A DNA stretch of 64,000 bases, from positions 273 through 64,272 of the forward strand of contig JAQICX010000182.1 in assembly GCA_027858345.1 (NCBI GenBank), written 5' to 3'. The stretch comes from Kiritimatiellia bacterium. Its GTDB lineage: Bacteria; Verrucomicrobiota; Kiritimatiellia; JAQICX01. Both the position numbers and the translations under genes were made by a program. How positions within the stretch are numbered: the first letter of the stretch is position 1; every line of letters begins with the position of its first letter. Below the pieces are notes generated by a model. It ran no database searches. It saw only the letters and a list, made by a program, of their open reading frames with translations, and was not told where the DNA came from. This document shows positions 1-62,093 of the stretch, piece by piece.

Positions 1-2289
1 TGCAGACAACTCAGCTATTACAAACAGACCATATATCAAATAGAATGCATAAAAATAGTTCATAAAGAACATATGCCTGAAATCAGCATTACCCCACTGA
101 AGGTATAGAACCATATGCAATGCGGTGCAGAAAAAGATTGCACGCCCACCAAAGTTGCGGAAGAAAGCGACGACAACACCAATAGCAGCAATGACAAGTA
201 ACGGAAAAGAGAAAAACTTAATGTTTTTATATAGACCAATATAATTGCGAATTGTATCGTGAGAGTTACCTGGATTCATTCCCTGACCATAGCCCTCTTT
301 TGAAAACTCAGCTGTTGCTCTTATTGTTTGTAAGCTTACAAATGGATTTCCAGTGCCTTGAAAATTTTGAATCAACAAAGGTGCAACACCAACTAAAAAT
401 GAAATTATAGCAAGAGAAACAACCATAAGCTTATCTTTTCTATGCCAAAACTTCTTTTCAATGATAACAGCAAAACCAATTGCCAGTGAATATACAATAT
501 TTGCCTCTTTAACAGAACATGAATAGCCTAGCAGGAAACCTGCTAAAATGACCCAAAAGATTTTACCACCATTAATCAGCTTAATAACCGCAAAAAGTCC
601 AAAAAGAATTAATGTGTAAAAGAGAGCCTCTCGCCATGGATAAGAAAACTGATTGAATGTATCGGGATTTAATAGAACAACAAAAAGAGTCGATAATCCC
701 GCGAAAATTGAGCCGTTAACTCCATTTTTGTATATTTCTTTTATACATAAAAAACAGGCAACCAGCGAGGCATATAGAAGCAACAGATTGGCGTGTAACA
801 TCAAACATGTCCCTCCCAAAATGAACATCAAAGCAAGAAAAAGTGGATAGCCACAAGCAACAGTGCATGCAATTGTTCCATCCTTGAGAATATGAGTATT
901 CCACACAATGCCGGGATGCACTTCTCCTGTAACACTATTCGCCCCAATAAAATCCCACATGGCACCTCTAAAATTAAAATTTCCGTCAGCAATTGATCTT
1001 GCAAAAGTTGTGTATGTATATGAGTCAGCGTTAATGGTTCCATAGTGGTTCACCCACAGTGGATATGCAATTTTTAAGGCTCCGGCAATCAGCAAAATGC
1101 CAATCAGAGTTTTGAACAAAAAATTAAACGGTTTTTTTTGTTTATCGGATGATTTTAGCGATTCGAACATAGATGTTTCGTATTCCTTGGTAATAACAGA
1201 CCACGATAGTTCATCTTTCGCTCTTTGTGCTCCAGCACCGGCAAGAGAACAACGCAGCTCATCATCCTTAAGCAATTTTTCTGCAGCATCAATCATTGCA
1301 GGATAGTCTTCAACATCAACTAGCAATCCTGTTTTTCCATCTAATACAGCTTCTGGAATTCCACCAATCTTTGTTGCCAGAGAGGCAGCCCCTCCAAGAG
1401 CTGCTTCAGAAAAAACAATGCCGAACCCCTCCACATCGCCAGGAACATCTAGACAAGGCAGTGTAAATATATCACAATGATAATATAGTTTAGTCAAATC
1501 ATTGTTGGAAACTTTGCCGAGAAGGAACACGTTGTTGTTGAGATTTAACTCATCAATCTTAGCCTGTATCTTATCCTTAAGACGATCTTTGTGTGCCAGT
1601 GACTTTGTTGCATCCTCGCCCACCACCAAATATGCCACATCTGGATAGCGTTTGACAAGCTCAGGCATAACATTCTCAACAAATTCAAGAACACCTTTGC
1701 GTTTAATCAATCTTCCAACAGAAAGTATAATTTTTTTACCTTTAACCTGCTTGAAAATTTCTTCACACCCAGTCGGAGGTTCTTCTTCATATAATTCAGA
1801 ACAAACTCCTGGATAAATGACATCAATACGAGACTCTTTACACCCAGCTGCAATAAGAAGCCTTTTTGTGTTTTCACTGTTAGCAGCAAGACGAGATGCA
1901 TGTTTGACTAAAAACCTTACACAAAACTGGTATAATTTGCCTCCATATAATATATCACTACCATGCATTAGTAAAAGATATGGAATTCGAAAAATAAGCG
2001 AAGAGACAAAAGCAGCCGGTGCGGTAACAATACTACCACATAAGATTACATCAGGACGTTCTTTTAGGCAAAACTTGAATGATGCAAAAAAGGAATATAT
2101 CACATAAGACTTCAACCCGGCCTTTTTACATCTATATACGTTGCTGTCTTCTTCAACGTCATCACAGTGTGATGTAATTGCAGAAACACTATGACCAAGT
2201 TTCTTTAAACCCTTGTAAAGATGCTCAACAACATATTCTATACCTCCTAAAACAGGAGGGAAATTCCAAGAAAGAAACAAAACTTTCAT
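1..2289 (-). CDS. Glycosyltransferase family 4 (GT-B fold) N-terminal domain fused in frame to a C-terminal polytopic membrane domain (ArnT/PMT- or O-antigen-ligase-like); C-terminus runs off the window start
   Basis: Manual minus-strand translation from ATG at 2289: MKVLFLSWNFPPVLGGIEYVVEHL...EGFGIVFSEAALGG... (GT4 motifs), continuing without a stop through ...EYETSMFESLKSSDKQKKPFNFLFKTLIGILLIAG... into many hydrophobic segments down to position 1. Absent from ORF track because it touches the window edge. Start adjacent to the upstream GT2 stop (operon). Confidence 0.6.
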   Translation of the reverse strand, partial: MKVLFLSWNFPPVLGGIEYVVEHLYKGLKKLGHSVSAITSHCDDVEEDSNVYRCKKAGLKSYVIYSFFASFKFCLKERPDVILCGSIVTAPAAFVSSLIFRIPYLLLMHGSDILYGGKLYQFCVRFLVKHASRLAANSENTKRLLIAAGCKESRIDVIYPGVCSELYEEEPPTGCEEIFKQVKGKKIILSVGRLIKRKGVLEFVENVMPELVKRYPDVAYLVVGEDATKSLAHKDRLKDKIQAKIDELNLNNNVFLLGKVSNNDLTKLYYHCDIFTLPCLDVPGDVEGFGIVFSEAALGGAASLATKIGGIPEAVLDGKTGLLVDVEDYPAMIDAAEKLLKDDELRCSLAGAGAQRAKDELSWSVITKEYETSMFESLKSSDKQKKPFNFLFKTLIGILLIAGALKIAYPLWVNHYGTINADSYTYTTFARSIADGNFNFRGAMWDFIGANSVTGEVHPGIVWNTHILKDGTIACTVACGYPLFLALMFILGGTCLMLHANLLLLYASLVACFLCIKEIYKNGVNGSIFAGLSTLFVVLLNPDTFNQFSYPWREALFYTLILFGLFAVIKLINGGKIFWVILAGFLLGYSCSVKEANIVYSLAIGFAVIIEKKFWHRKDKLMVVSLAIISFLVGVAPLLIQNFQGTGNPFVSLQTIRATAEFSKEGYGQGMNPGNSHDTIRNYIGLYKNIKFFSFPLLVIAAIGVVVAFFRNFGGRAIFFCTALHMVLYLQWGNADFRHMFFMNYFYAFYLIYGLFVIAELSA

Positions 2290-4754: not shown

Positions 4755-7520
4755 TTATTGATTAGCCTGATCTGCTTCTTCCTGAAGCTTATCAGCAATC
4801 AAATCTGCACTTGAATCTTCAACTGGACGACCAGCTGGGTCAACAAGTCTTGCTGTAACAAAAATCAACAAGTTACGTTTTTCACTTTGGCTTGTTTTGC
4901 TCTGAAAGAATTTTCCAATAATAGGTATATCACCTAAAAGAGGAATCTTATCAATTGTGTCAACACGCTTTTCTGTAATCATACCACCCATTACAACAGT
5001 TGCACCATTATAAATTGAAATACTTGTCTGAACTAGTCTTGTGTGGAAGAAAGGTTGCTCCATATTAAGCTGTTGGACATTTCCTTCCTGATCTGTATAT
5101 GTAGTACCATAGTTTTTCCAATCAGGCTCTGTAACAACTTCTGGAGTCATATTTAGAGTAATCATTTGACCTTCAGGACTAACGTCTGGTTGAACAGTAA
5201 GAATCACACCAACTTCACGCATTTGAAAATCCTGAGGTTCAACGATACCACCAATGATAACCGCAGTATCATTAATAGCAGTCTGCCCTGTAACAGGAGT
5301 AACCGTATATGCAGTTGGATAAATATATTCTGTGACAACTTTAATTGTTGCTTCTTGACCTGTCTGAGTTGTAACCTTTGGAGATGACAGCAAATCAGCA
5401 TGACCTTTTTGCTCCAATGCATGAATAACAAGTCCAAGTTCCGGGTTTGTAAGAATACCAGCAATTGAAAGAACAGAGTCAGCAACGTTTGCAGCATCTG
5501 CAGTAACAACGTCAGACATAAATCTGTTACCAGTTGTAAAACCACCTGATGCACTATTAGCAGCAATATCTACTCTTGGCGCAGCTCCTGGAGCATAATT
5601 GCCATTCTTTGATGCAAGAGTGAAGTCATCATTAAGGAACCATTCAAATCCTAGAGAGTTCATATCCTTTTCATTTACTTCAACAAAACGAGCTTCAATT
5701 TCAATCTGGTTAGGGACAACATTTAGTTCATTAAGAATTCCTTCAAAATCTATTAAGTTATCTTCTGTGTTTGCAACAACAATTTTACCAATTGATCTGA
5801 TGTATTGAATTTGAGAACCAACAGGCCATTTAACTCCCATCTTCGTGAAAAACTCTTTCCAAGGAACAGCAGTTGCCTCCGTACCACCTGCATCACCAAA
5901 ACCAAAACCATCCCCAACTCCACCTGCATTCATTGACAACTCATTGCCAACTGATGGAATTTTATCTTCAACAGATGGTAGAACATCATATGTCTTAACA
6001 ATAATCTTGCCATCAGGAGCATCCGCTGGAACAATCATAACAACAGAACCATCAATTCTGTATTTCAATTTAGAAATTTCTGTAACAATATTTAAAGCCT
6101 CTAGCAATGATATGTATCTTGAACTAAATGTAATAGATTGTTGACCACTTGAATCTGCAACCGCTGTGGTTGGAATTGAGAACGGATCTGGCTCACTTGT
6201 CGTTGCAACAGGCTCGGCATCAGCACCAAGATTAAGAATTATATTTACACCTTTTTCTTCTTGAGGAGAATCTGATGTGTCATAGTCAATAGATGCTCGT
6301 TGTAAAAAGTCAATAACATCAACAATATTTGCCTGACGGAAATTTAACTCAGGTATAATAATGCTTTTCATTTTTTCTGCAATACGAACCTTTTTGTCGT
6401 CTGATATTAATATAGGCTTAGTATTCCGCATTTTATCGGTAGCGCCCTTGTTTACAGCAACATAGCTATCAGGACTCCATTTGTCTCTAACTTCAGCCAT
6501 CATATTAGCACGAGTTGCTTCTGCTTCTTTTGTATTAATTGTGTACTTGTTTCTACCACAAGTTTCTAATAATTTGATTGCATCACGATTATATGGTTCA
6601 AGAGCTAAAACACCCTCAAGCATTAGAACTGCTTCATCGTAATTACCAACAGCCATATACTGTTTTGCTTTCACAAGAAATAGATTTACATCTGTTTGAA
6701 GATCTTTGTAACTATTCTTCTGCCATTCAAGATTTGAATCTTTTTGTTCGACAACAGGAGGTGATTCTTGATACTCAACACATTTTTTTACAAGAGCAGG
6801 AGCTTTGCGGTAACCATACTGAGCTGATTCACGAGCATTGTTTTCTGCAATCTGATAATCACCCTGCTCCATAAGAATAAGTGCTCTCGCATAATATGTT
6901 TCGCCAAGCCTATTTGGAATCTGGTCTTTATAAACTCTAGCTTCTGTACTATTGTTCAAATATTTATTAGCTTCTTTATAAAGACGAATTGCTTGTGCAT
7001 ATCTTTCATTCTTATATGACTCTTCGGCTTCTTTAAAAGTTTTGATACCAAATAATGTTTCAGCCTCTTTTTTGTTGATTTCAAGCTGAATCATTGTGTT
7101 GATATCTGTTTCATCATTTGCAACAGTTGATACAACAGGCTTAACAGGCTCAGCTGTTACATCTGTAGCAAGATCACCAAAGCTGTTCATTGCTGCTAAC
7201 TCCTCTTCAGGTTCAACAGCAACTTCATCAGCAGTGGTTTCCGGCATGGTTTCTGCTTCATCAATATCCATTGTGACTTCTGGTTCGTCAAGATCAAGAA
7301 GATCGCTCACATCAGAAGAGCCGCCGGATCCAGGACTGTTAACTGTGACATCAACACTTGCATTCGTATCCGCTTTGTTCTCAACAGCAACAGGGCTGAC
7401 AGGTTCATCAAGCAACAAGTCTTCATCAAGCAAGAACTCATCATCTTGTGCAACAAGACCTTGAAAAGTTAATGCCGAACATACAACAGCTGTCAACATA
7501 AATATATTTTTCTTTGTCAT
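4755..7520 (-). CDS. Secretin (GspD/PilQ family outer-membrane channel) with signal peptide, long acidic N-terminal region and TPR-like segment
   Basis: 921 aa; signal peptide MTKKNIFMLTAVVCSALTFQGLVAQ; C-terminal secretin signature ...KIPLLGDIPIIGKFFQSKTSQSEKRNLLIFVTARLV. Confidence 0.8.
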   Translation of the reverse strand: MTKKNIFMLTAVVCSALTFQGLVAQDDEFLLDEDLLLDEPVSPVAVENKADTNASVDVTVNSPGSGGSSDVSDLLDLDEPEVTMDIDEAETMPETTADEVAVEPEEELAAMNSFGDLATDVTAEPVKPVVSTVANDETDINTMIQLEINKKEAETLFGIKTFKEAEESYKNERYAQAIRLYKEANKYLNNSTEARVYKDQIPNRLGETYYARALILMEQGDYQIAENNARESAQYGYRKAPALVKKCVEYQESPPVVEQKDSNLEWQKNSYKDLQTDVNLFLVKAKQYMAVGNYDEAVLMLEGVLALEPYNRDAIKLLETCGRNKYTINTKEAEATRANMMAEVRDKWSPDSYVAVNKGATDKMRNTKPILISDDKKVRIAEKMKSIIIPELNFRQANIVDVIDFLQRASIDYDTSDSPQEEKGVNIILNLGADAEPVATTSEPDPFSIPTTAVADSSGQQSITFSSRYISLLEALNIVTEISKLKYRIDGSVVMIVPADAPDGKIIVKTYDVLPSVEDKIPSVGNELSMNAGGVGDGFGFGDAGGTEATAVPWKEFFTKMGVKWPVGSQIQYIRSIGKIVVANTEDNLIDFEGILNELNVVPNQIEIEARFVEVNEKDMNSLGFEWFLNDDFTLASKNGNYAPGAAPRVDIAANSASGGFTTGNRFMSDVVTADAANVADSVLSIAGILTNPELGLVIHALEQKGHADLLSSPKVTTQTGQEATIKVVTEYIYPTAYTVTPVTGQTAINDTAVIIGGIVEPQDFQMREVGVILTVQPDVSPEGQMITLNMTPEVVTEPDWKNYGTTYTDQEGNVQQLNMEQPFFHTRLVQTSISIYNGATVVMGGMITEKRVDTIDKIPLLGDIPIIGKFFQSKTSQSEKRNLLIFVTARLVDPAGRPVEDSSADLIADKLQEEADQANQ

Positions 7521-7686
7521 AAAGATATAATCTCCATTTCTTCATTCTTTATTAAATGGGCAATGTTTCAAATCAAAACAAAATAACCCTATAACCTGTC
7601 ATTACAACAGGTGTTCAATCATAACTAACTGTTTATTATCAAGGACTTACAAATATTCCAAGATAAAAATCCTCTAAAAACTCTAT

Positions 7687-8703
7687 TTATTTCCCTTCAA
7701 AAACAAGGACTTCATCGTCATCAATGCGCTTTATTACTATATTTTGACCCGAGTTGTCAACATGAATAAACTGATATGGCTTATTTTTTAGCTTAAATGT
7801 ATCACCAGCACGTAATTTGAATTCTTCACCTGTGATGTTAAACTTAAGGGTTACAGTGTATTCTTTATACGCAGTACCTTTACCTTCGATAAGATCAATT
7901 TTTTTCCCGGAAGGAGATATCAAACGCAAAACATCTTTATCTCGCTCTCCCTCATTCTGAGCTTTTGCAGCACCTTTTCCAAAATTTGACAGTGTGAACC
8001 CTTCAACCTTTTCCCCGAGTTTCTTAAAATGAGTTCTATCACCATTCTTTAGATTTATCTGGAACATTCTAGATTTATCTGGTAGCAACGATGAACCTTT
8101 AAACAATAGATTAAATGGGTCAGCAACCACTGAAACAACTTTCAATTCTGTGTCTGGTGGTGGATAACTATTTGGATCCGATAGACTCGTATTTGACTTA
8201 AACTCAACAATGTTTGAGAATCCATCACCATCTGCATCAGCCATTGAATCATCAAGACGATGGTTTAAACCATGCTCTTTTTCATACATATCAGGTATTC
8301 CATCCTTGTCTCCATCATATTTTTCGTCAAGTGATCTAAGTGGTGGCTGTACTGTTTGACAAAAAGGACATTTCTTTGCAAAGTATGCTATTGGTATTTT
8401 GCAGTCAATACAAACAACTCTTGACTCTGGAACAAACATAGCAACATTTGTCCAACCTGGATCAGCTAAATTTAACTGATACGGATTTGTAATCTCTGCT
8501 ATTGTGTCCTCGTACTGAGAAACATCTAAAACAGATGCATTAGGGTTAGCCTTGGTGTAAGAAACAATCTCGTTTTCAACTTCAGCCATATCTTTAACAC
8601 CCTGCCCAACATTTATATATAGGTAGGCAGCTGTTGCCAACAAAGCAATAACCACCAATATTAAAATAATTTTATCATAAGAACTTTTTATCATAGAAAT
8701 CAT
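7687..8703 (-). CDS. Membrane-anchored hypothetical protein with CxxC...CxxC zinc ribbon and thrombospondin-type-3-like Ca-binding repeats (DGDKDGIPD, DADGDGFSN); pilus/secretion-cluster associated
   Basis: 338 aa; N-terminal TM helix; CIDCKIPIAYFAKKCPFC; acidic D-x-D-G-D repeats; sits between secretin and PilMN genes. Confidence 0.6.
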   Translation of the reverse strand: MISMIKSSYDKIILILVVIALLATAAYLYINVGQGVKDMAEVENEIVSYTKANPNASVLDVSQYEDTIAEITNPYQLNLADPGWTNVAMFVPESRVVCIDCKIPIAYFAKKCPFCQTVQPPLRSLDEKYDGDKDGIPDMYEKEHGLNHRLDDSMADADGDGFSNIVEFKSNTSLSDPNSYPPPDTELKVVSVVADPFNLLFKGSSLLPDKSRMFQINLKNGDRTHFKKLGEKVEGFTLSNFGKGAAKAQNEGERDKDVLRLISPSGKKIDLIEGKGTAYKEYTVTLKFNITGEEFKLRAGDTFKLKNKPYQFIHVDNSGQNIVIKRIDDDEVLVFEGK

Positions 8704-8714
8704 AATGCAGCACT

Positions 8715-9722
8715 CTACTTATCTTCTTGGTTATATGTTTTATCAAATCTGTAAACTTCAATACCAATTGTTACTTCCATTGGCACCTCCAACTCTAAAC
8801 CAGAAACTAATCTTTCTGGACGGGATAGCTCCTTCAGTGTAACACCATCAGCCAAGGCCTTTGCTTCAATCGTTGATGAAGGTAAGATTCCATTGTTAGG
8901 CTTTATAAATTTAACTGTTGAAACTCGAAGGAACATCTTTTCCTTTGAAATATTGTTCAAAATTTCTAAAGCACTCTGCATCTTTGCCTTAATCACGAAT
9001 TCAAAGTACATTTTTCCAAAAATTTCATTTCGAACAATCCTGCCTGTTTCAGGGTTTGTCATCCCCTGAACACTGTTAGCTTTTGGAGTAGGCTCACCTC
9101 CACGACTATTTCTTCCACGACGGCTGCTACGAGATCTACTGTCTGTTTCTTCCTCTTCAGTATCTGAAGTGCTGTTAACTTGAGACCCCTCAAAGAGCTC
9201 TCTTTTAATTGCTATAATCTCTTGTGGCTTAGCCTCACAAAATATAGTAACCAATCGTTCCACAAGAAACAGTTGCTGACCAAGTCTTCCAACATCTCTA
9301 GGTGCAGGAAGAGCATTGGCCTCAAAATACTTTTTGAAACCAAGATCAAACTCAGCTGGCATCTTAACATTATTCTCTCTTATAAGAGCAAACATCTCTG
9401 TTCTTTTCTCACCTAAAGTGGACATAAATGCTGATGGACTCTTCTGTACCGGCTCAACTTGTTGAGCAGCCAAGTTATTTAAAATGTCGTCAAACCATTT
9501 CTGAAGTTCTACATCATGTTCCTTGTATACATCAATATTCTCTTCTGTTGGAAACGGGTTGCTATCTTCATAAATTCTTTTGATTGAATCTTTAGCCCCG
9601 GTCATCTCCGACATTGCTTCATTGTAACCTAAAAAACCTAAAACAAGCATTGTGCCTGATCCAATAAGCATTAATGCACCAACCGCTATGGCGACCCACA
9701 AAACTATTTTTCCTGATTTCAT
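8715..9722 (-). CDS. Membrane-anchored hypothetical protein of the T4P-like cluster; positional and size equivalent of Akkermansia Amuc_1100-type pili-like protein
   Basis: 335 aa; N-terminal TM; charged low-complexity middle; gene order secretin-X-Y-PilM-Z matches Amuc_1098-1102 locus (recalled from literature, not verified by alignment). Confidence 0.55.
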   Translation of the reverse strand: MKSGKIVLWVAIAVGALMLIGSGTMLVLGFLGYNEAMSEMTGAKDSIKRIYEDSNPFPTEENIDVYKEHDVELQKWFDDILNNLAAQQVEPVQKSPSAFMSTLGEKRTEMFALIRENNVKMPAEFDLGFKKYFEANALPAPRDVGRLGQQLFLVERLVTIFCEAKPQEIIAIKRELFEGSQVNSTSDTEEEETDSRSRSSRRGRNSRGGEPTPKANSVQGMTNPETGRIVRNEIFGKMYFEFVIKAKMQSALEILNNISKEKMFLRVSTVKFIKPNNGILPSSTIEAKALADGVTLKELSRPERLVSGLELEVPMEVTIGIEVYRFDKTYNQEDK

Positions 9723-18911: not shown

Positions 18912-18947
18912 AATCTCAACCTTAATCTCAACCTTAATCTTAACCTT
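18912..18947. repeat. Three tandem 12-bp units (AATCTYAACCTT)x3 immediately after the stop codon; hexamer-period CTTAAY family also at 19796-19822 and 43304-43328
   Basis: Read directly: aatctcaacctt aatctcaacctt aatcttaacctt. Confidence 0.7.
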
Positions 18948-20921: not shown

Positions 20922-21074
20922 CTTATATGCCCTTTCTATTATTCTGGTTCTACCAGAAATTTTACACTCTTTTCAAACCTATTATCAATGTGATAAAAAA
21001 CTGTTTTGTCTTATGCAATCTCTTCTCGTCTGTCATCGTCCGATGCTACAGACATTGTGTCTACAAAACAAACC

Positions 21075-21175
21075 CCTGTTCGCCAAAACTCCTCCCCGGC
21101 TAGCTTGCTAGTCCCGCTCTGCGGGAGGAGGTCACCTCGCGTGCGAGGTGGGAGGGTACTTACTTCTTCCTTAGA
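21075..21175. repeat. Stacked-hairpin GC-rich intergenic repeat (family 2: CTCCTCCC...GGGAGGAGG + CACCTCGC-gtg-CGAGGTG + GGGAGGGTACTTACTTCTTCC)
   Basis: Copies at 21075-21175, 22598-22672, 31385-31495, 31836-31960 and inverted at 50640-50745. Confidence 0.8.
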
Positions 21176-22398: not shown

Positions 22399-22597
22399 TT
22401 TATCGTCCTTTCTCTATAATTCATTCCGTTAAAAACTTTACTCTTTTAAAAACATATTTTGTTATAAATCAACGAGATACAGCAACTTTTGCTCTATTCC
22501 TATTTTTTTCGTCAGTCAACTGTGTCCTGCGAAGCTTGCAAAGCGAAGAATGATCTCGCCTTGCTTGACTACAGCCATCGTATCTAAAAACTACCCC

Positions 22598-22672
22598 TAG
22601 TATGCAAAAACTCCTCCCGCTTTTAGGGGAGGTCACCTCGCCTGCGAGGTGGGAGGGGTACTTACTTCTTCC
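22598..22672. repeat. Stacked-hairpin repeat family 2 copy (CCTCCCgcttttaGGGGAGG + CACCTCGCctgCGAGGTG + GGGAGGGGTACTTACTTCTTCC)
   Basis: Read directly; near-identical 3' half to 21127-21170. Confidence 0.8.
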
Positions 22673-31175: not shown

Positions 31176-31384
31176 ATCATTATTCCTTTATTTATCCTTC
31201 GGTTCTGTCAAAAGTTTGCAGGCTTCCGCCTTCGCAAAGCGAAGAATGACGCCCCTGGCGCTATCAGCCGTCATTCCTTCCAGCCTTCGCCGTCCATGCG
31301 TCGCTCTGCGAGCTATGCAGGAGGCGCTTGGGCTACGGCTGACAGGCCTTTGCGACATACAGGTGTTGTGTTTGCAAGTCAACT

Positions 31385-31495
31385 CTAGTCCGCAAAAGCT
31401 CCTCCCGCTTTTAGGGGAGGTGGCGATCCAGCTACTACTTTGCTTTAAGTCAAAAGCAAAGTAGTAGCTGGAGAGACGGAGGGGTACTGCCTTCA
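31385..31495. repeat. Stacked-hairpin repeat family 2 copy containing a perfect 19-bp-stem hairpin CCAGCTACTACTTTGCTTT-aagtca-AAAGCAAAGTAGTAGCTGG
   Basis: Read directly at 31412-31456; flanked by CCTCCCgcttttaGGGGAGG and GGAGGGGTACTGCC. Confidence 0.8.
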
Positions 31496-31835
31496 TCACT
31501 GAATATTCGAAGTCGGACACTTTCTTGTATTCTTACTATTAAAGCTTTCTTACAAAAACCAAAGATACATTTTTCTGACTTGCGGGTCATTTTCGCAAAC
31601 ACACGGTCATAATGCAAGAACTTTTTTTCAAAAAATTAAGAAAAACTGCTTTTTTGTCGATTATCTTGTTAAATACTAGGATGCTAGTTGATTTTCTTAC
31701 GTCAATATCTATTTATCACAGGCAAACACGGACTAACACACACAAGCGAATATCCAGCTTGGGTGTCGAGACATGGTCTCGCAAAGTGAAGGCTGAAAAC
31801 CTCGAGAAACTTGCAAATAAATTTGAGTCCGCCAA

Positions 31836-31960
31836 AGCTCCTCCCCGGCTAGCTTGCTAGTCCCGCAAAGCGGGAGAAGGTGGCAATCCCGCTACTACTT
31901 TGCCTTTTTTAAAAGCAAAGTGGAAGCGGGAGAGACGGAGGGGTATTCATTTTATTGGAT
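31836..31960. repeat. Stacked-hairpin repeat family 2 copy (extended CTCCTCCCCGGCTAGCTTGCTAGTCCCGCAAAGCGGGAGAAGG + degenerate long hairpin + GGAGGGGTA)
   Basis: Near-identical 5' half to 21084-21130 and to the reverse complement of 50690-50745. Confidence 0.8.
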
Positions 31961-40946: not shown

Positions 40947-41272
40947 CAGGCAAATGCAACCTTAAAAATCATAGAAAATATACTTTCCTCACTTTTTTGG
41001 TTACCCCACCATTGTCACTCCCGTTTTTTCAAGACAACGGTTATTTGTATGCCGGGAGCGACACTCGAGCCTGCGAGAGAGGCTGCTTTCCCTAATGAGA
41101 AAAGTAGAAAGGAGCAATGAGCGTAGCGAATGGCCTACATTCGTCCTCGTTGTCACAACTATGTTCAACCTTAAAATTCAGGGAAAACAACCTTAATTTT
41201 TAGTTTAGGATCAGAAACATGTCTTTCAATTAGTAAAATTAGCAAAAAACACATTGTTTTATCACCAAACTG

Positions 41273-41505
41273 ATGATAAATATGAAAAATAATTTTTTAA
41301 AGGCGGGGTCATCAGTCTTCGCCCAGCTATTAACAATATAATAAATCTTGTTAGTAGCTGGGCTACGCCAGACGCAGCGTACTTTGAAGGTAAACCCTAC
41401 AAAATACTTGCAAATCAAGGATTTAGCTTTGGTTGCAGCATCCGTAACTGTAGGGTCGGGGTCCGTGACCCCGCCAAAAAGGGTGTTCAACCGAAAAATC
41501 AAGGA
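41273..41505 (+). ncRNA. Copy 1 of a paired ~200-bp structured repeat (candidate small RNA gene or MITE) with TGATAAAT promoter-like box, nested hairpins and 10-bp terminal inverted repeat GGCGGGGTCA / TGACCCCGCC
   Basis: First 102 nt (41301-41402) identical to 59161-59262; 3' hairpin GGGGTC-cgt-GACCCC vs GGGGTG-ctt-CACCCC in copy 2 (compensatory). Overlapping ORFs 41239..41502(-) and 41348..41536(+) are judged spurious. Confidence 0.45.
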
Positions 41506-41961
41506 TACTCACCCTAGTTTTTCGGTTGGAGTCTGAAACATGCGTTTCAGCTAATAAAATAAGCTATTGATTTTTCCTTTTATGCCTTTTTGGGTGATAA
41601 ATTAATGTTTTTTATAAGGGGCTGTTAGCAAGTGTCTTATGGTAAAAATACGCTTTGCGCATTGCATCCCGCTTTGCGGAACCAGCAAAGCTGGCATAAA
41701 TCATAATAGGCGAAGCGACTTCCTAACCTCGTAGAGAACTATTTACTATTTACTATCAACTATAAACTATTTGAAAGAATGGCTTTCCAAAATTTCAATA
41801 AAAAAATGAATCAACATAAAAATTTAGGAAAAACAACCTCTTTTTACAAAATTACTTGATATATATATACACCTTTGATAAAATTAAGGGTAAATTTAAA
41901 ACAAATAAGATTTTTGATTTTACATTTAAAGCAAATCTCTTAAAATAGAAAGGCTAAAACA

Positions 41962-43293: not shown

Positions 43294-43618
43294 TAAGTCA
43301 GCAGGTTAAGATTAAGGTTAAGGTTAAGGGCTGAATACCTCCCCGGCGGAATTATAGAAAAATTGAAAAAACAGGAATATTCTTCATGTAACACGGAGAA
43401 AATAGGCAGGGAATTGCAAAATCAGTTTTGCGGGTTTAAGTCCTTGGTCGAAAGTCTTTAGTCTTTCTTTTTGGTTGCGAAGGCAACCCGCGAGTTTTGG
43501 TCATTTTTGTCCTTTAGGTCGTTTTATACATTCACCGACCTCTGAGGATATCAGCTAAAACTAGGAAACGGCAGAGGACTGATTGCACTTCCACACCTGT
43601 CTTGTCGCGCCGGAGTGA

Positions 43619-43787
43619 CACGGCTACAGAGTGAACTTTGTAAATTGACGGTTAAACTGTAGTTTCACTCTGTAGCCGACCTCAGCAGAGGTCGGGAACA
43701 CGGTTGAATCGAGGAATTAACGCTTAGCAACTTTTAGTCGAGAGTCCTGAGTCGTGAGTCAAATTGACATATAACATAACAGTTATG
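43619..43787. repeat. ~165-bp composite hairpin repeat (family 1 long form): 15-bp perfect inverted repeat CGGCTACAGAGTGAA/TTCACTCTGTAGCCG, CCGACCTC-agca-GAGGTCGG hairpin, GGGAA, then GAATTAACGCTTAGCAACTTTTAGTCGAGAGTCCTGAGTCGTGAGTCAAATTGACATATAACATA
   Basis: About 88% identical to 50808-50957. Confidence 0.8.
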
Positions 43788-43835
43788 AAAAAACATTAAA
43801 CTTGTGGAATAACCAAAAAAATAAAGGAAAACAAG

Positions 43836-44225
43836 ATGTCAAACGTTGCAGACAGATTACATAATGACAGATTAGTCGAACTACTAGGAATTGAAATACT
43901 TGATGAAAACGAACAATTTCCATCATGCCAGCTCAAAGTATGCAAGAAACACCTCAACGGTGTAGACTACACACAGGGTGGTGCAATTTTCACACTTGCG
44001 GACTACGCATTCGCAATTGCATCCAACACAGACCAACGCCTATCCCTCGGCATAAGCACAACAATGAATTTCTTCAAAGCAACCAAAGAAGGCGATATCC
44101 TCTACACAAAAACTCGCGAACTAAGCCGCACAAAAAAACTTTCAATCTACGAAGTTGAGATATACTGCGAAGATGCACTTATAGCAACCTTCACAGGCAC
44201 CGCATATAAAGTCGCCGATTGCTAG
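43836..44225 (+). CDS. PaaI/YbgC-type hotdog-fold thioesterase
   Basis: 129 aa; …GGAIFTLADYAFAIASN… hotdog thioesterase signature. Confidence 0.8.
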   Translation: MSNVADRLHNDRLVELLGIEILDENEQFPSCQLKVCKKHLNGVDYTQGGAIFTLADYAFAIASNTDQRLSLGISTTMNFFKATKEGDILYTKTRELSRTKKLSIYEVEIYCEDALIATFTGTAYKVADC

Positions 44226-44685
44226 AGAAGGGTAACGTAACGATCTTTCCCGCCTTACGGGACTAGCAGAGCCAGCACGCAAGTGTGAAGGTTTTCATTT
44301 GGTTTGCAACAAGATCCATCATCTTAGCTTATTTTTAATACGACCACAATGTGGAAATCCACCCTTTTCCGTACAGGTTAAACGTCCGCAGGGTAAGAGG
44401 CTTTAGTTTATCTAAAGCAACAGAGCATAGCGAAGTGACAATTTGGCAGTTCTATACCATTTTTATTTGGTCGACAACAGGTAGTCCTTTTACTTTCAAA
44501 AAGTGTAAAACTATCACAGGACAAGACGAGTTCTGCGTCCTAGTTTGTCATTGGCGTAATTGTACTGCGACATGGTTGCATTGTCAAATTGATTTTTGAC
44601 TTCTGTGACTAAATCTCGGTTTGGCTCGTAACTTCTCGTTACTTCAAAGTTGTTCGGGGCAGCTTCACTCCTTTTTCCCACTTTC

Positions 44686-44710
44686 CCTTTTAAGTTTTAA
44701 CTTTCATCAC
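44686..44710 (+). repeat. Left copy of 23-25-bp direct repeat CCTTT(T/G)AAGTTTTAACTTTCATC bounding the DUF2442/DUF4160 cassette
   Basis: Matches 45888-45910 at 22/23; partner motif GAGTTCTGCGTCC.A.TTTGTCATT at 44530 and 44720. Confidence 0.7.
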
Positions 44711-44775
44711 GTCTATCCGTTGAGTTCTGCGTCCGATTTTGTCATTTATTGGGCTTAAACACAAGAGACATCCAT

Positions 44776-45015
44776 TTATGTACACAAATCATATAGTGTT
44801 TCTGGAGCAATATCAAAGCCACATGACCAACAAAGAGTAGGCCATGAATCTAAAGAAAAATTTGCAAATTCATTTAATTCTCGAAGAGATTTTGCATCAT
44901 CATACTTAAAGATTATATCCTGCAAATTTACTTCACCTGATTTACCTGTGTTAAATTTTATAAAAACCTTGTAGTTATAAATATAATAAGCATCTTCAAT
45001 ATATACACATTCCAT
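44776..45015 (-). CDS. DUF2442-family small protein
   Basis: 79 aa; C-terminal …WPTLCWSCGFDIAPETLYDL resembles DUF2442 …DI.PE.LY. Confidence 0.6.
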   Translation of the reverse strand: MECVYIEDAYYIYNYKVFIKFNTGKSGEVNLQDIIFKYDDAKSLRELNEFANFSLDSWPTLCWSCGFDIAPETLYDLCT

Positions 45016-45053
45016 GATTTTATTCTCCTTATTTACAAAACTAGCAAATAGTT

Positions 45054-45320
45054 TTAAACAGAAGCGAAAGTCTTTTTATTATTTTTAATGGAAATACTCT
45101 TCTTATACAAATACTCAGGGTCTAAATCCAGTTCATTCGCCCACTCAATTGTGTCAAAAGAAATTTTGACTGACTTAAAGAGTTTTTCATCTCGCAATTC
45201 AGAAAATCGCCCAAAATTCAACAAAGGACTCACATCAAACTCTCTTTGCTCTGAGTTCTGAAAAGTTAGTATAAGTTTATAGTCCTCTGTTGGAACTACT
45301 GATATAACGCTTAAATACAT
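45054..45320 (-). CDS. DUF2442-family small protein
   Basis: 88 aa; …ISFDTIEWANELDLDPEYLY… DUF2442 signature. Confidence 0.7.
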   Translation of the reverse strand: MYLSVISVVPTEDYKLILTFQNSEQREFDVSPLLNFGRFSELRDEKLFKSVKISFDTIEWANELDLDPEYLYKKSISIKNNKKTFASV

Positions 45321-45329
45321 AAATACTCC

Positions 45330-45596
45330 CTAAATTAATGGTGCAATTTTATATGGATTTTCTCCACTCATTGCAAGCACCCAATCTGCCTGCAACTCTT
45401 CAATATGTAACTCTGCCCAAGCCTTAATAAGTCTAGTTTGTTTCTTCGGCAAATTTCCATCTAACACTTCTAATGTTTTTATACTAAAAGACGCCTTATA
45501 CTCATTGTAATAAGCATGAAAATGAGGTGGATTATGCTCCCCTGGAGCAAAATACATTCTAATTATAATTCCATAAAACATTGATATCGACGGCAT
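45330..45596 (-). CDS. DUF4160-family small protein (partner of DUF2442)
   Basis: 88 aa; MPSISMFYGIIIRMYFAPGEHNPPHFHAYY hallmark of DUF4160. Confidence 0.75.
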   Translation of the reverse strand: MPSISMFYGIIIRMYFAPGEHNPPHFHAYYNEYKASFSIKTLEVLDGNLPKKQTRLIKAWAELHIEELQADWVLAMSGENPYKIAPLI

Positions 45597-45887
45597 ATAA
45601 CAAACTCCCTATTAATTTATATGCCTTTACTATAAAACAAAACATATAATTTGTCAACAAATTCAGACAATTCTAATCAATTAATTTCTATATAGTCTCG
45701 AGGCTAGACTGCTTAACAGTGGTGTTTCATCGATTACGTTCAACACAGTTCCCTATGTACGCTTACTCTATATTGTTCAATATATAATCTCCGCTATAGA
45801 GCCAACGCTCGGTATGAGCTGATGGCGAATCTTTACTCAGAAAGCATGAAACAATGAGCTTCGCTCTACCTGTATTTTTAACTTTTA

Positions 45888-45910
45888 CCTTTGAAGTTTT
45901 AACTTTCATC
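45888..45910 (+). repeat. Right copy of the direct repeat bounding the DUF2442/DUF4160 cassette
   Basis: cctttgaagttttaactttcatc; see 44686-44710. Confidence 0.7.
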
Positions 45911-45954
45911 TACGGCTTTCCTTGACGCACCCGCTTTTATTTGGCAAACAACAA

Positions 45955-46248
45955 TTATTTTTTATTTTGAGATTTGTGTCCATTTTTCCAACATATAACG
46001 GAAACAATAATTAAATTTATACATACCGACCCCCAAGCATGTATCAATAAAATGTAATGTGGCAAAGTCTGAGTATCAGATTCTATCGGTATTATACTCC
46101 ATGGCATCCCCAGCCCTATCAATATAAGCCATACTCCCGGCAAATTGCCTATAGTAATGATAATTACTATTGACACTCCCACCAAAACATAAAAGATTAA
46201 TTCAAATATATTACAAAAACGAATGTGGTTATTTTTCATTCGCAACAA
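45955..46248 (-). CDS. Small hydrophobic membrane protein, hypothetical
   Basis: 97 aa with three hydrophobic helices; AT-rich context. Confidence 0.45.
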   Translation of the reverse strand: MLRMKNNHIRFCNIFELIFYVLVGVSIVIIITIGNLPGVWLILIGLGMPWSIIPIESDTQTLPHYILLIHAWGSVCINLIIVSVICWKNGHKSQNKK

Positions 46249-46432
46249 CTCTCCTCACATAATAAGACTGCACCCTCATATTCAATTCTCGGTTTTCTTT
46301 CCATGTTTAGAATCATTACACATTATACTCACACACATCATCACTAATGCTAAAACAATAGGACCGATACCTTTTGGATACCTTTCTTTTTTGCCCCTGA
46401 CGTATGATTTTGGTCTAATATGCGTTGGATGC

Positions 46433-47203
46433 CTACTGTAAATACCACACACCATTCGTTTTGATAGCGTACATCATGTAGCTCTCGTACCACTCTTCAT
46501 AAGCAGCTTTTAATTTGATCAAGGGAGTCTCATTATCTCTGCAAATTATAGCAATGTGATCATTATACGGACTAATGCTAGAAACAATGTCGCCTTCACA
46601 TTCTGTCCACTCCAAGCGAGATGTAGGACTCATGGCTATGGAATAGAAAAACATCGTACGCTTCTTTTGGACTGCCACAGAGCAGCCCTTCGCTTCTGCG
46701 AGATCTACCACCTGATAGTTGAGATTTGTTGCAAGAACTGGTTCCAAATTGCCATTTTTGAAAGCAGAAATCACCTCAACCACTAGTTGCGTGAGTGTGC
46801 TTTGATCCTCTTGTGTGATATTTGTTATTGAATCTGATTCCTGCCAACTCCATTGATGGTCAAATGTCGGGAGATAGAAATTTGTGAAAACCACAGAAGG
46901 AACACCGTTAGGAAGTATCCATTCACAAACGTTTGTGCTTGTACCATCGGTTGCAATTCTCTCAATACGTCCGGTAACACCTCCCTGTTGCATGATCACA
47001 ACGGAATTTGAGCCTTCAACCAAGTGAGTTGTAACGATCGGTGGCAGGGCATCCCCTTTGTTGAGATACTTGAAGCCGTTGATATAGACAGCTTCTTCAG
47101 CAGAACCTTCCGCATACAGAATATAGTCTTGCCCCGATGCCCCAATGGCACAAAAGATAAGGGATACAATCGTGATGCAAAAAGTCTGTGTAACGCGTTT
47201 CAT
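46433..47203 (-). CDS. Secreted hypothetical protein; start region contains an in-frame tandem duplication of RBS+ATG
   Basis: Likely start MKRVTQTFCITIVSLIFCAIGASGQ at 47203 (GGGAGG SD); ORF track extends to 47368 through two extra in-frame 45-nt repeat units each carrying SD+ATG. Confidence 0.65.
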   Translation of the reverse strand: MKRVTQTFCITIVSLIFCAIGASGQDYILYAEGSAEEAVYINGFKYLNKGDALPPIVTTHLVEGSNSVVIMQQGGVTGRIERIATDGTSTNVCEWILPNGVPSVVFTNFYLPTFDHQWSWQESDSITNITQEDQSTLTQLVVEVISAFKNGNLEPVLATNLNYQVVDLAEAKGCSVAVQKKRTMFFYSIAMSPTSRLEWTECEGDIVSSISPYNDHIAIICRDNETPLIKLKAAYEEWYESYMMYAIKTNGVWYLQ

Positions 47204-47289
47204 GTTTGATATTTCTCCCTGTTCAAAAGTTCTATGTGATAGTTTCATGTTTGATATTCCTCCCTGTACAAAAGTTCTATGTAATGCGT
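47198..47289 (-). repeat. Two tandem 46-bp units (about 93% identical) each containing SD GGGAGG and an in-frame ATG at the 5' end of the 46433 gene
   Basis: 47198-47243 tttcatgtttgatatttctccctgttcaaaagttctatgtgatag vs 47244-47289 tttcatgtttgatattcctccctgtacaaaagttctatgtaatgc. Confidence 0.85.
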
Positions 47290-50639: not shown

Positions 50640-50745
50640 GGTTTACAAGGAAGTACCCCTCCCACCTCGCAAGCGAGGTGACCTCCTCCCGCCTTGCGGG
50701 ACTAGCAAAGCCAGCCGGGGAGGAGCTTTGGCGGACTAAGGTTGA
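50640..50745. repeat. Inverted-orientation copy of stacked-hairpin repeat family 2
   Basis: Reverse complement reads ttagtccgccaaagCTCCTCCCCGGCTGGCTTTGCTAGTCCCGCAAGGCGGGAGGAGGTCACCTCGCTTGCGAGGTGGGAGGGGTACTTCC. Confidence 0.8.
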
Positions 50746-50807
50746 TTTGCAGTTTCCCGCGCCGAGGCGACGAGGCTATCCCGCCTTACGGGACTAGCAA
50801 AGCTAGC

Positions 50808-50957
50808 TGTGAACTTTGCAGGTTGACGGTTAAACTGTAGTTTCACCCTGTAGCCGAGTACCGTGGGCTCGGGAAAAAAGTTGAATCAGGGAATTAACGC
50901 TTAGCAACTTTTAGTCGTGAGTCCTGAGTCGTGAGTCACATTGACATATAACATAGG
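50808..50957. repeat. Second copy of the ~150-bp composite hairpin repeat (family 1 long form)
   Basis: About 88% identical to 43631-43787; hairpin stem here CCGAG…CTCGG instead of CCGACCTC…GAGGTCGG. Confidence 0.8.
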
Positions 50958-51044
50958 GGGCTAGCGTTGCTATCCCGCAAAGCGGGATCTGAAAAGTGCA
51001 TGAAATTTTTGAGAGAATAGAGATCAAAAATCAAGGAGAAGAAA

Positions 51045-53512: not shown

Positions 53513-53589
53513 TGGCGGGATCGACGGGACTCGAACCCGCGACATCTAGATCGACAGTCTAGGACTCTAACCAATTGAGCTACGACCCC
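53513..53589 (-). tRNA. tRNA-Asp (anticodon GUC), CCA encoded
   Basis: Reverse complement GGGGTCGTAGCTCAATTGGTTAGAGTCCTAGACTGTCGATCTAGATGTCGCGGGTTCGAGTCCCGTCGATCCCGCCA folds into cloverleaf: acceptor GGGGTCG/CGATCCC, anticodon stem CTAGA/TCTAG, loop CUGUCGA. Confidence 0.9.
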
Positions 53590-58782: not shown

Positions 58783-59133
58783 TTTAATTCCTTAATAAAT
58801 TATTTGCACCTCTGGCACATCAAACATAAACCGTAAATCTTCTTTTTTGTCATAAAAGGTGTATAAAATAATAACTGATAACGAATTATGCAAGCAAATT
58901 CTTGTTTTTTTTATAAAAAAACATTGATTTAGAAAAAACAAAGATATATAATTTATGTATTGTATACTTCTGTGACAGGTGCAAGACAAGAGGTTTTAAT
59001 AAAAGCTGACGACCTCCCTAAAACTACATCCGACCGAGAATTTGCTAAAGACCTTCGCTTTCGGTGGAGGATGCGAACGTGGATTTGGGTCAACAAAAAC
59101 AGGGAGTGAGATTTCATTTTTTATTTCTTTGAG

Positions 59134-59398
59134 TGATAAATCTGAAATATATGTTTTCAAGGCGGGGTCATCAGTCTTCGCCCAGCTATTAACAATATAA
59201 TAAATCTTGTTAGTAGCTGGGCTACGCCAGACGCAGCGTACTTTGAAGGTAAACCCTACAAACCACCTGCGAAGCAACCTTTTAGCTTTAATTTCAGCAT
59301 CCGTAACTTTCTTGTCACGCCGTAGTCTGGAACAGCGAAGGAGGAAGGGTCGGGGTGCTTCACCCCGCCGAAAAAGGTATTCAACCGAAAAATCAAGG
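59134..59398 (+). ncRNA. Copy 2 of the paired structured repeat (candidate sRNA gene/MITE), with ~35-nt internal insertion relative to copy 1
   Basis: 59161-59262 identical to 41301-41402; conserved upstream TGATAAAT (59134-59141) and downstream GGTATTCAACCGAAAAATCAAGGA; overlapping ORFs 58996..59277(-) and 59207..59428(+) judged spurious. Confidence 0.45.
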
Positions 59399-59414
59399 AA
59401 AGAATCAATTGATG

Positions 59415-59443
59415 TAATTCTCGATTGAACACCACTTTGTTTT
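59415..59443 (+). promoter_or_regulatory. Strong sigma-70 promoter TTGAAC-17-(TGtGc)TATAAT for pyrF
   Basis: -35 59415-59420, extended -10 59433-59443. Confidence 0.6.
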
Positions 59444-59482
59444 GTGCTATAATATACCCAAAATTATAAAGAGGAAATAATT

Positions 59483-60178
59483 ATGAGTTTAATTGTTGCA
59501 CTAGACGTGCCGACATCTTCGGAGATACCAAAAATTGTGGAATCACTACCGGAAGAGATTGATTTTTACAAAGTTGGCTTAGAAATTTTCACAGCCGAAG
59601 GACCAAAAGCGCTGGAATACCTACAAAAGAAAAATAAGAAGATTTTTCTAGATTTAAAGTTACATGACATTCCAAGAACGGTTGCCCATGCGGTGACATC
59701 AGCTGCGAAACACAATGTTGGACTCTTAACAGTTCATGCGTGTGGTGGTCGAGCAATGCTGGAAGCGGCAGCTGAGGCAGCGGCAAAATTTGGAGATAAG
59801 GCGCCAAAGCTACTTGCGATAACAACCCTTACAAGTTTGGATCAAAGTGATTTGACGGATCTTGGAATTCAGAGAAGTGTTGCGGAGCACACTGCTGCAA
59901 TGGGAAAACTGGCAATTGACTGCGGAATTGACGGACTGGTCTGCTCTGCACTTGAAGTGGGTGCCTTTAGAGAAACCCTTGGACCAGAACCAATACTAGT
60001 GACACCTGGCATTCGTCCTTCAGGAGGAAGCGTTGGAGACCAGAAACGTGTTGCAACACCAACATCAGCAATTCAAGATGGTTCAAGCTATCTAGTGGTT
60101 GGTCGCCCAATTGTGAAGGCAGAAAATCCTTTTGAAGCCGCAACTCAAATTCTTGAGGAAATTAAGAACGCCAAATAA
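59483..60178 (+). CDS. pyrF: Orotidine-5'-phosphate decarboxylase
   Basis: 231 aa; …IFLDLKLHDIPRTV…, …VHACGG… motifs. Confidence 0.9.
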   Translation: MSLIVALDVPTSSEIPKIVESLPEEIDFYKVGLEIFTAEGPKALEYLQKKNKKIFLDLKLHDIPRTVAHAVTSAAKHNVGLLTVHACGGRAMLEAAAEAAAKFGDKAPKLLAITTLTSLDQSDLTDLGIQRSVAEHTAAMGKLAIDCGIDGLVCSALEVGAFRETLGPEPILVTPGIRPSGGSVGDQKRVATPTSAIQDGSSYLVVGRPIVKAENPFEAATQILEEIKNAK

Positions 60179-61620: not shown

Positions 61621-61924
61621 CATCCTCCTTCGCAGACTCTGACTCCGGAGGACAGTCCACACGGGTTAACACAGATTTCATTTGTATAACCCCTTTATAA
61701 ACAGCACTTTACGTTTTTTCGGGATTTAACAACGCAATACAACTACATGACATACTTTCTTAGATATCATCTTCTGGGTGATATTGTTATAAAATAATTT
61801 TATGCAGGCTTAAAGTATTAAACAATTTGCTTGTGGATTTAATTATCAACATATTACATGAATATATTTACCCGTGAAAATCTGTCGGGTCTGTCCACCG
61901 GAGTCAGAGTCTGCGAAGAGGATG
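61621..61924. repeat. ~305-bp element bounded by 34-35-bp imperfect inverted repeats (CATCCTCCTTCGCAGACTCTGACTCCGGAGGACAG / CTGTCCACCGGAGTCAGAGTCTGCGAAGAGGATG); candidate invertible switch or MITE
   Basis: IR arms 61621-61655 and 61891-61924 (1 mismatch + 1 indel); 235-bp AT-rich non-coding core; lies between lpxA terminator and the 62094 gene. Confidence 0.6.
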
Positions 61925-62093
61925 ACGAAGAGAAAAAGGAACCTGCAACCGAAAAATTAAGGTAGTTTAGGTTTTGTGCAAGATTTTTCTTTTATTCTCG
62001 TTGATATTATATTACTATCTGCCCTTGTGTTATCATGTTAACAACATATTTAAAAGCTCTGAAACCTATTTGAGGAAAGCATTAACATAACAG

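Follow-up and report, generated by a model that had tools for sequence, protein, structure and literature searches.

A probable mosaic family of miniature inverted-repeat transposable elements in Victivallales with promoter-proximal, oriented insertion

Introduction

To our knowledge, promoter-directed transposition is rare in bacteria and is known essentially from TnGBS, ISLre2 and ISKra4 elements, mostly in Firmicutes. The TnGBS integrative and conjugative elements, the ISLre2 family (p-MULT 3) and the ISKra4 group (p-MULT 4) are promoter-targeting Mutator-like DDE transposons (Brochet 2009; Guerillot et al. 2014, PMC3942029). They insert ahead of sigmaA promoters, at 15-17 bp from the -35 hexamer, with the right inverted repeat (IRr) on the promoter side; the asymmetry of the inverted repeats sets the orientation, and elements with symmetric inverted repeats have promoters on both sides. 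The p-MULT inverted repeats span 18-39 bp with a terminal C, and the direct repeats measure 8-9 bp (PMC3942029). In this study, analysis of a 64,000-nucleotide stretch of contig JAQICX010000182.1 (hereafter the window) revealed a repeated element with one copy at 41191-41505 and another at 59052-59399, and comparison with related genomes indicates that it very probably belongs to a mosaic family of miniature inverted-repeat transposable elements (MITEs) of Victivallales (Lentisphaerota) whose insertions are promoter-proximal and oriented.

MITEs such as the Correia elements of Neisseria, ERIC, RUP and Nezha are short, non-coding, highly structured, multi-copy sequences that end in inverted repeats and duplicate their target; they frequently lie near promoters and can carry promoter-like boxes. 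The family described here shares with them its small size, lack of coding capacity, structure, copy number, terminal inverted repeats and duplications. We know of no fixed distance or orientation to host promoters for the MITEs named above. Correia elements duplicate TA and carry promoter parts of their own, whereas in the family described here no part of the host promoter belongs to the element. None of the papers that treat MITEs together with Lentisphaerae describes such an element.

Results and Discussion

Copies in the window and in related genomes

Both window copies lie on the + strand and share an identical block of 104 nt (41300-41403 = 59159-59262). In a preliminary description of the window this block had been given as 102 nt, and the element had been taken for a two-copy family, preferably of small RNA genes, with a MITE as the alternative. 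The two loci had been placed correctly, but homology reaches further than described and in each copy opens with a left terminal repeat (Table 1). The upstream TGATAAAT box and the conserved 3' tail TTCAACCGAAAAATCAAGGA (41486 in copy 1, 59380 in copy 2) were found in both copies as described, the box lying 20 nt upstream of GGCGGGGTCA in copy 1 and 19 nt upstream of it in copy 2. The 3' hairpin reads GGGGTC-cgt-GACCCC in copy 1 and GGGGTG-ctt-CACCCC in copy 2, and copy 2 further differs by an additional segment of 35 nt and a diverged middle. Each copy occupies a divergent intergenic region, copy 1 between argJ and a ferredoxin gene and copy 2 between asd and pyrF (ATG at 59483), with the ferredoxin gene and pyrF on the + strand. 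The internal open reading frames (ORFs) differ between the copies, i.e. there is no conserved ORF.

A scan of GTDB genomes with a 22-base pattern of the 3' hairpin (GGGTCGGGGTNNNNNACCCCGCCNAAAA) revealed about 28 sites in one uncultured Victivallales metagenome-assembled genome (MAG; CAYTUX01, GCA_964441455.1), many of them at contig ends. The window organism is a close relative of this MAG (PyrF 87% identical), and contigs of the window's own organism from a metagenome also break within copy 2. With these sites, and with partial or variant members at no fewer than three other places in the window (~41060-41183, 41512-41620 and one ending at 61962), the family is far from restricted to two copies. 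Four further pattern matches (Dehalococcoidia, Thermoflexus) fall inside a protein-coding gene and were set aside as chance.

Evidence for transposition as DNA

Analysis of full-length copies in the relatives revealed perfect 8-bp direct duplications on both sides: ACTTAAAA at locus L009, ATATTCAT at L019 and AATCTGGA at L055, the last upstream of pyrF. Since only one of the three can be extended by a base on either side, the duplicated segment measures 8 bp and the termini of the element read 5'-CC...GG-3'. In tandem arrays (L010, L008 and L024) neighbouring copies are separated, right end to left end, by a spacer of 7-8 nt that matches the duplication behind the final copy; repeated insertion into one site would be expected to leave this pattern. 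The spacer is TGAGAGG, three times, in L010 and ATTGGTT/ATTGATT in L008; TGAGAGG is partly confounded, this heptamer being present in the left-arm consensus as well, and is supportive only. The region upstream of pyrF offers an orthologous comparison: three related genomes share the pyrF promoter TTGATG-17-TATTGT, with no element upstream of it in L051, and L055 (MAG species), L049 (species A) and the window each hold a different family member at the same position. The element has moved as DNA, giving 8-bp target duplications.

The preliminary description had proposed a copy count and a search for target-site duplications as a check of the MITE alternative. The about 28 sites in the MAG and the perfect 8-bp duplications in relatives, together with the terminal inverted repeats, the nesting and the empty orthologous site, favor that alternative.

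Position and orientation relative to promoters

Promoters were called as the best sigma70-like match (TTGACA-16..18-TATAAT) within 110 nt of an element end. Among 27 hairpin-anchored copies, 20 had a best promoter that began 24-28 nt past the right end, most often at 26 nt (binomial P ~1e-21). Over all recognisable ends, this spacing was found for 40 of 74 right ends, a set that includes spurious matches, and for 1 of 25 left ends (Fisher P = 4e-6). A position-by-position logo from fuzzy right-end matches was diluted by spurious matches and was not used. The 26 nt between the right end and the -35 hexamer are AT-rich and unconserved in sequence, and the target duplication lies directly at the right end; hence the downstream promoter is host DNA outside the element. 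In the symmetric copy at L013, which has right-type ends on both sides, promoters lie 27-28 nt out on each side. In nearly every copy a co-directional ORF or tRNA gene begins 15-500 nt downstream and no clear convergent arrangement was seen; downstream of the predicted promoters lie ribosome-binding sites and ORFs or, in one case, a tRNA gene. The right end precedes the -35 hexamer of sigma70-type promoters by about 26 bp, with a single orientation of the element.

Several observations weigh against a promoter-directed MITE family. The window copies lack clean duplications, copy 1 being part of a tandem cluster and the flanks of copy 2 sharing only AAAGA, so that the evidence for transposition comes from the relatives. 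No transposase or autonomous element with these ends was found in the window (Pfam, ten ORFs), and no autonomous partner was found among the called genes of the related loci or in plasmid, phage and viral collections. In the latter, viral contigs gave 0 matches to the hairpin and left-end patterns, and plasmids and phages gave no match to the copy 1 cluster (distant blastn). A metagenome scan with the 19-mer of the window right end, in a collection that holds none of the window's lineage, returned 16 unrelated chance matches. The promoters are consensus predictions rather than mapped transcription start sites, and about a quarter of the copies lack the 24-28 nt spacing. Finally, targeting is deduced from surviving insertions, with which selection after random insertion is formally still compatible; neither a spread as narrow as +/-2 nt nor the tandem re-insertions would be expected from such selection.

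A rival reading invokes selection. A right end centred near -71, or the element as a whole, may have been domesticated as a promoter-upstream cassette that is held at a fixed distance by its function and not by target choice, serving for regulator binding, as an UP-like or insulating module, or as a second upstream promoter. The fixed orientation, the right end at about -62, the internal promoter-like box directed at the gene, and the unrelated housekeeping genes and tRNA gene downstream would suit such a cassette. Against it, tandem re-insertions with the same 7-8 nt spacer point to repeated targeting of one site, the pyrF promoter is conserved without the element, the downstream genes have no common theme, and transposase-driven targeting is sufficient by the precedent of TnGBS and ISLre2. 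We consider domestication of this kind unlikely.

Under promoter-directed transposition of a MITE, a DDE-type transposase supplied in trans would recognise the asymmetric ends and would pick its target by measuring from the promoter, as the transposases of TnGBS, ISLre2 and ISKra4 do. The RNA-like hairpins would then be cargo or DNA-level palindromes and not selected RNA. The left-arm box may have served as an ancestral promoter of the transposase gene, and transcription from it could extend into the gene downstream.

Comparison with promoter-targeting and other transposons

Comparison with TnGBS, ISLre2 and ISKra4 revealed the same geometry, in that insertions are oriented, the right inverted repeat is the end next to the promoter, and the -35 hexamer follows at a fixed distance. 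The ends are likewise asymmetric, a symmetric copy has promoters on both sides, the inverted repeats are at least 18 bp long, the duplications fall within 8-9 bp, and the insertions are intergenic and spare genes. Differences were found in the distance, which is ~26 bp here (18 bp past the duplication) against 15-17 bp, and in the duplication, which is 8 bp here against 9 bp in the ISLre2 and ISKra4 entries. The termini are 5'-CC...GG-3' here against 5'-G...C-3' in p-MULT and GGG...CCC in ISKra4, the published inverted repeats ending in C or CCC. Unlike p-MULT elements, the family is non-autonomous, and no linked Mutator-like transposase was found. Its hosts belong to Lentisphaerota, whereas those of ISLre2 are nearly all Firmicutes. 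Because of the mismatch at the termini, which are a defining feature, and of the distance and the duplication length, the family is likened to p-MULT elements and not filed as a member.

Victivallis vadensis ATCC BAA-548 carries several identical genes for a 398-aa 'MULE transposase' of p-MULT 2 with undefined ends (PMC3942029, Table S1). They could supply the order with Mutator-like transposases. A possible further lead is the IS1595 family, which makes AT-rich duplications of 8 bp: the ends of its IS1595 subgroup begin with CCTGATT and resemble CCTTGATTTTTCGG, the reverse complement of the window right end. We know of no report of promoter targeting in the IS1595 family.

Anatomy and mosaicism of the family

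Full-length MAG copies revealed true terminal inverted repeats of ~18 bp, CCTTAGATTTCTGGTTGA ... TCAACCAGAAAAACAGGG, located outside the GGCGGGGTCA/TGACCCCGCC pair, in a non-coding unit of ~240-350 bp. The minimal unit of the MAG copies consists, in order, of the left terminal repeat CCTTAGATTTCTGGTTGA; a subterminal module (GAGGATAAACATGAATTTTGACCAATAAAATAAGG) followed by ~30 variable nt; the box TTTTTGGGTGATAAAGTTGAAAATTATATTTTAAAGG; a first hairpin, hp1 (GCGGGGTGAAGCACCCCGAC); a core CCTACAG...TGCAATCAA-loop-TTGATTGCA...CTGTAGG; a second hairpin, hp2 (GTCGGGGTCCGTGACCCCGCC), with the linker AAAAAGGGTGT; and the right terminal repeat TCAACCAGAAAAACAGGG. The conserved left arm of a full unit holds a promoter-like TTTTTGGGTGATAAA box. 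The pair GGCGGGGTCA/TGACCCCGCC, which had been read as a 10-bp inverted repeat at the ends of the element, is therefore the outer part of two mutually inverted internal hairpins; it measures 10 bp in copy 1 only and 8 bp in copy 2.

The same arms and ends carry at least four unrelated interiors, and the family is thus a mosaic. In the window, the third variant (Table 1) has an interior with a 45-nt inverted repeat (61628-61672 / 61874-61918, 82% complementary, 201 nt apart) around the left-arm box, and the interior and right end of the ~41060-41183 member recur upstream of pyrF in L049. A mini-element CCCAGCTA..TAGCTGGG occurs at differing positions in other copies (L021, L022, L029 and L051).

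The mini-element, CCCAGCTAyTAA...TTArTAGCTGGG, has inverted ends of its own (2903-2968 in L051; also L021, L022 and L029), and its insertion point is TTTTTGG|GTGAT of the left-arm box in the relatives and inside hp1 in the window copies. Recombination may be seen in another contig of the window's organism (JGI 3300051639, L001, positions 1-230), where the copy upstream of pyrF mixes features of both window copies: the variable stem AATACTTGCAAATCAAGGATTTAGCTTTGGTTGC is of the copy 1 type, and the 35-nt insert and the hairpin are of the copy 2 type (compared with 59253-59350). Gene conversion between copies at the strain level could account for this mixture, as could a chimeric assembly at the contig end.

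The interior (hairpin-core-hairpin) resembles the repetitive extragenic palindromic (REP) units, bacterial interspersed mosaic elements (BIMEs) and REPINs, and it could be a unit mobilised by a RAYT (Y1 HUH) transposase, as are the BIMEs of E. coli and Pseudomonas, that is nested in another repeat. As in these systems, GC-rich imperfect palindromes are abutted by GTAG (CTAC..hp1 / GTAG..hp2, e.g. ..CTGTAG-GGTCGGGGTCCGTGACCCCGCC), two inverted units lie ~60 nt apart as a doublet, two alternating hairpin alleles recall the Y and Z units of BIMEs, and the layout is modular and mosaic. Unlike REP units, BIMEs and REPINs, the whole unit has features that are not products of single-strand transposition of the RAYT type, namely terminal inverted repeats and 8-bp duplications, and the copies lie upstream of promoters at the 5' side of genes and not at gene 3' ends. 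At every locus examined the doublet lay between transposon arms or arm fragments, inside an element bounded by terminal inverted repeats, and never free-standing and dispersed; no Y1 transposase was seen in these genomes, in which no Y1- or RAYT-directed search was made. A RAYT-mobilised interior is thus an improbable origin of the copies.

RNA or DNA structure

Both window copies fold far more stably than shuffled sequence on the + strand (z = -7.2/-5.6) and equally so on the - strand (z = -7.2/-5.4). At the Rfam gathering score the whole window gave only a tRNA-Asp (53516-53589), and a search of both copy regions at E<=10 gave noise only. ARAGORN found no tRNA or tmRNA at either copy, and no intrinsic terminator was predicted in or after either copy. 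The Rfam and ARAGORN results agree with the preliminary description in that the element is not a tmRNA, RNase P, SRP or tRNA gene, and the copies matched no other known structured RNA such as 6S RNA, riboswitches, HEARO or Acido-Lenti-1.

In the four helices, 89% of positions are paired over 16 minimal copies, and the double changes represent two or three subfamily alleles, e.g. C-G/G-C at the hairpin tip. The difference between the 3' hairpins of the two window copies is as had been reported; it reflects two alleles that recur family-wide and not repeated covariation. Among the mismatches in the helices, G.T (18) and A.C (19) are equally frequent, so neither strand is favored; DNA palindromes or neutral decay account for this pattern better than does a strand-specific RNA.

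The TGATAAAT box was found in the conserved left arm of every variant, whatever its interior. Several MAG subfamilies have TTGnTT 17 nt upstream of the box, and TTGATT-17-TAAAGT with TG makes a reasonable promoter; in the window copies the box is weak as a promoter, and the sigma70 scanner made no call there. Transcription may start from the box.

These results bear on the reading preferred in the preliminary description, a family of small RNA genes. Under it, the TGATAAAT extended -10 box would drive a structured RNA of ~200 nt acting in trans, and the spread of the copies would be secondary. The conservation of the box (with TTGATT or TTGTTT exactly 17 nt upstream of TAAAGT, and TG before it, in several MAG subfamilies), the very stable folds (z ~-7) and the hairpins, 89% paired with few double changes, speak for it. 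This reading is not supported: there is no match to an Rfam family, no tRNA or tmRNA match, no terminator past the structure and no strand bias of wobble pairs, the - strand folds equally well, and the double changes are subfamily alleles rather than repeated events. Moreover, the box is retained in members with an entirely different interior, the -35 is poor in both window copies, and the terminal repeats and target duplications require DNA transposition regardless. A small RNA gene family is therefore a highly improbable explanation.

Retron msr/msd, T-box or riboswitch leader, 6S RNA, Y RNA and omega or bridge RNA were dropped on anatomy. No gene for a reverse transcriptase, TnpB, IscB or a recombinase is adjacent, the element precedes the promoter, and Rfam gave no match.

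Features and other repeats of the window

Copy 1 lies in a tandem cluster with the degenerate right end before it and the truncated left arm after it (Table 1). A sequence upstream of copy 2, TCAACAAAAACAGGG, was considered as a right-end remnant and was rejected, since alignment with full-length copies showed it to be the subterminal left-arm module. The nearest predicted promoter to the right end of the third variant is weak and lies 22 nt away, not 26 nt.

Table 1. Coordinates of family members, their parts and further hairpin repeats in the window
Feature	Coordinates	Strand	Remarks
Degenerate right-end repeat TTCAACCTTAAAATTCAGGG	41164-41183	+	Ends an upstream member (~41060-41183) with another interior (GAATGGCCTACATTCGTCCTCG module)
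Left terminal inverted repeat, copy 1, degenerate CCTTAATTTTTAGTTTAGG	41191-41209	+	Fuzzy match to the terminal inverted repeat; aligns with the left end of full-length MAG copies
Subterminal left-arm module (..AGAAACATGTCTTTCAATTAGTAAAATTAGC)	41210-41245	+	Kept in all family variants; compared with MAG copies and L055
TGATAAAT box, copy 1	41274-41281	+	Part of the left-arm box (TTTTTGGGTGATAAAgt in MAG); resembles an extended -10
hp1 5' half (GGCGGGGTCA), internal GC hairpin	41302-41311	+	3' half replaced; intact GGCGGGGTCACGGACCCCGAC in minimal MAG copies
82-nt block in place of hp1 3' half	41312-41393	+	Includes TACGC/GCGTA hairpin; identical in copy 2
Nested mini-element CCCAGCTATTAAC..GTTAGTAGCTGGG	41322-41362	+	Inside the 82-nt block of copy 1
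Core stem-loop ACCCTACA..TGCAAATCAAGG-loop-CTTTGGTTGCA..CTGTAGGGT	41394-41456	+	Variable middle; pairing is 91% in helix 2 and 76% in helix 3
hp2 (CGGGGTCCGTGACCCCG)	41457-41473	+	Inverted counterpart of hp1, GTAG before it; helix 4 is 100% paired; two alleles, C-G and G-C
Right terminal inverted repeat, copy 1 TCAACCGAAAAATCAAGG	41487-41504	+	Fuzzy match to the terminal inverted repeat; full-length MAG copies
Truncated further member, left arm only	41512-41620	+	Left end CCCTAGTTTTTCGGTTGG, subterminal module, TTTTTGGGTGATAAAT box (41588-41603); tandem, 7 nt past copy 1
Left terminal inverted repeat, copy 2 (CCTTCGCTTTCGGTGGA)	59052-59068	+	Followed by subterminal module (59070-59104)
TGATAAAT box, copy 2	59134-59141	+	
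hp1 5' half and 82-nt block, copy 2	59161-59252	+	5' half 59161-59170; block 59171-59252; nested mini-element 59181-59221
35-nt insertion, copy 2 only	59309-59343	+	Length not a multiple of 3
hp2, copy 2 (CGGGGTGCTTCACCCCG)	59351-59367	+	Second hairpin allele; recurs in MAG copies
Right terminal inverted repeat, copy 2	59381-59398	+	
pyrF promoter TTGAAC-17-TATAAT with upstream TG (predicted)	59425-59453	+	Starts 26 nt past the right end; host DNA outside the element
Right end of third family variant (GCAACCGAAAAATTAAGG)	61945-61962	+	Left-arm box at ~61772-61786
Other GC-rich hairpin repeats	21066-21156, 22570-22667, 31358-31421, 31812-31881, 44245-44293, 50647-50751, 50776-50824, 50959-50987		

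Analysis of the window also revealed other families of GC-rich hairpin repeats (CCCGC-N4-GCGGG with ACTAGCA; GGAGGTCACCTCGC..GCGAGGTGGGAGGG), which are intergenic and occur in both orientations (Table 1); related modules are present in the sister genomes L049, L053 and L055. A repeat of ~150 nt, ending ..AATTGACATATAACATA, is represented by two copies (43631-43778 and 50809-50955) that are 92% identical and precede + strand genes, a 4HBT thioesterase gene (43836) and an SNF-family transporter gene (51045); it may be another promoter-associated repeat. The repeat-rich segment of ~3 kb at 43300-46430 has short ORFs only. An (AAGGTT)n-like tract was found at 43303-43329 with an inverted counterpart at 18920-18946, and two tandem units of 44 nt (GTTTCATGTTTGATATTTCTCCCTGTTCAAAAGTTCTATGTGAT), 93% identical and 45 nt apart from start to start, at 47197-47285.

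Compared with the window, the sister species (L049/L050) has an extra gene for an 849-aa secreted glycoside-hydrolase-like protein between asd and pyrF (6848-9397), with repeat-rich flanks. This ORF in L049 was considered as a transposase and was rejected on its signal-peptide-like N-terminus, the lack of a Pfam match and the lack of a bounding left end.

Significance

For an uncultured lineage, elements of this kind flag sigma70-type promoters. They also break MAG assemblies and can pass for structured small RNA genes. With ~240 bp, the element is a natural substrate for the study of how a transposase measures its distance from a promoter.

It is possible, though doubtful, that a transposase lineage unrelated to TnGBS, ISLre2 and ISKra4 independently evolved oriented promoter-directed insertion in the PVC (Planctomycetes, Verrucomicrobia and Chlamydiae) group, at ~26 bp, one helical turn more than TnGBS, and that these MITEs rewire dozens of housekeeping promoters through a second, element-borne promoter and GC hairpins placed upstream. 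The finding of a non-autonomous family in Lentisphaerota with other termini and another distance and the same oriented geometry suggests that the strategy is more widespread, or that it arose more than once.

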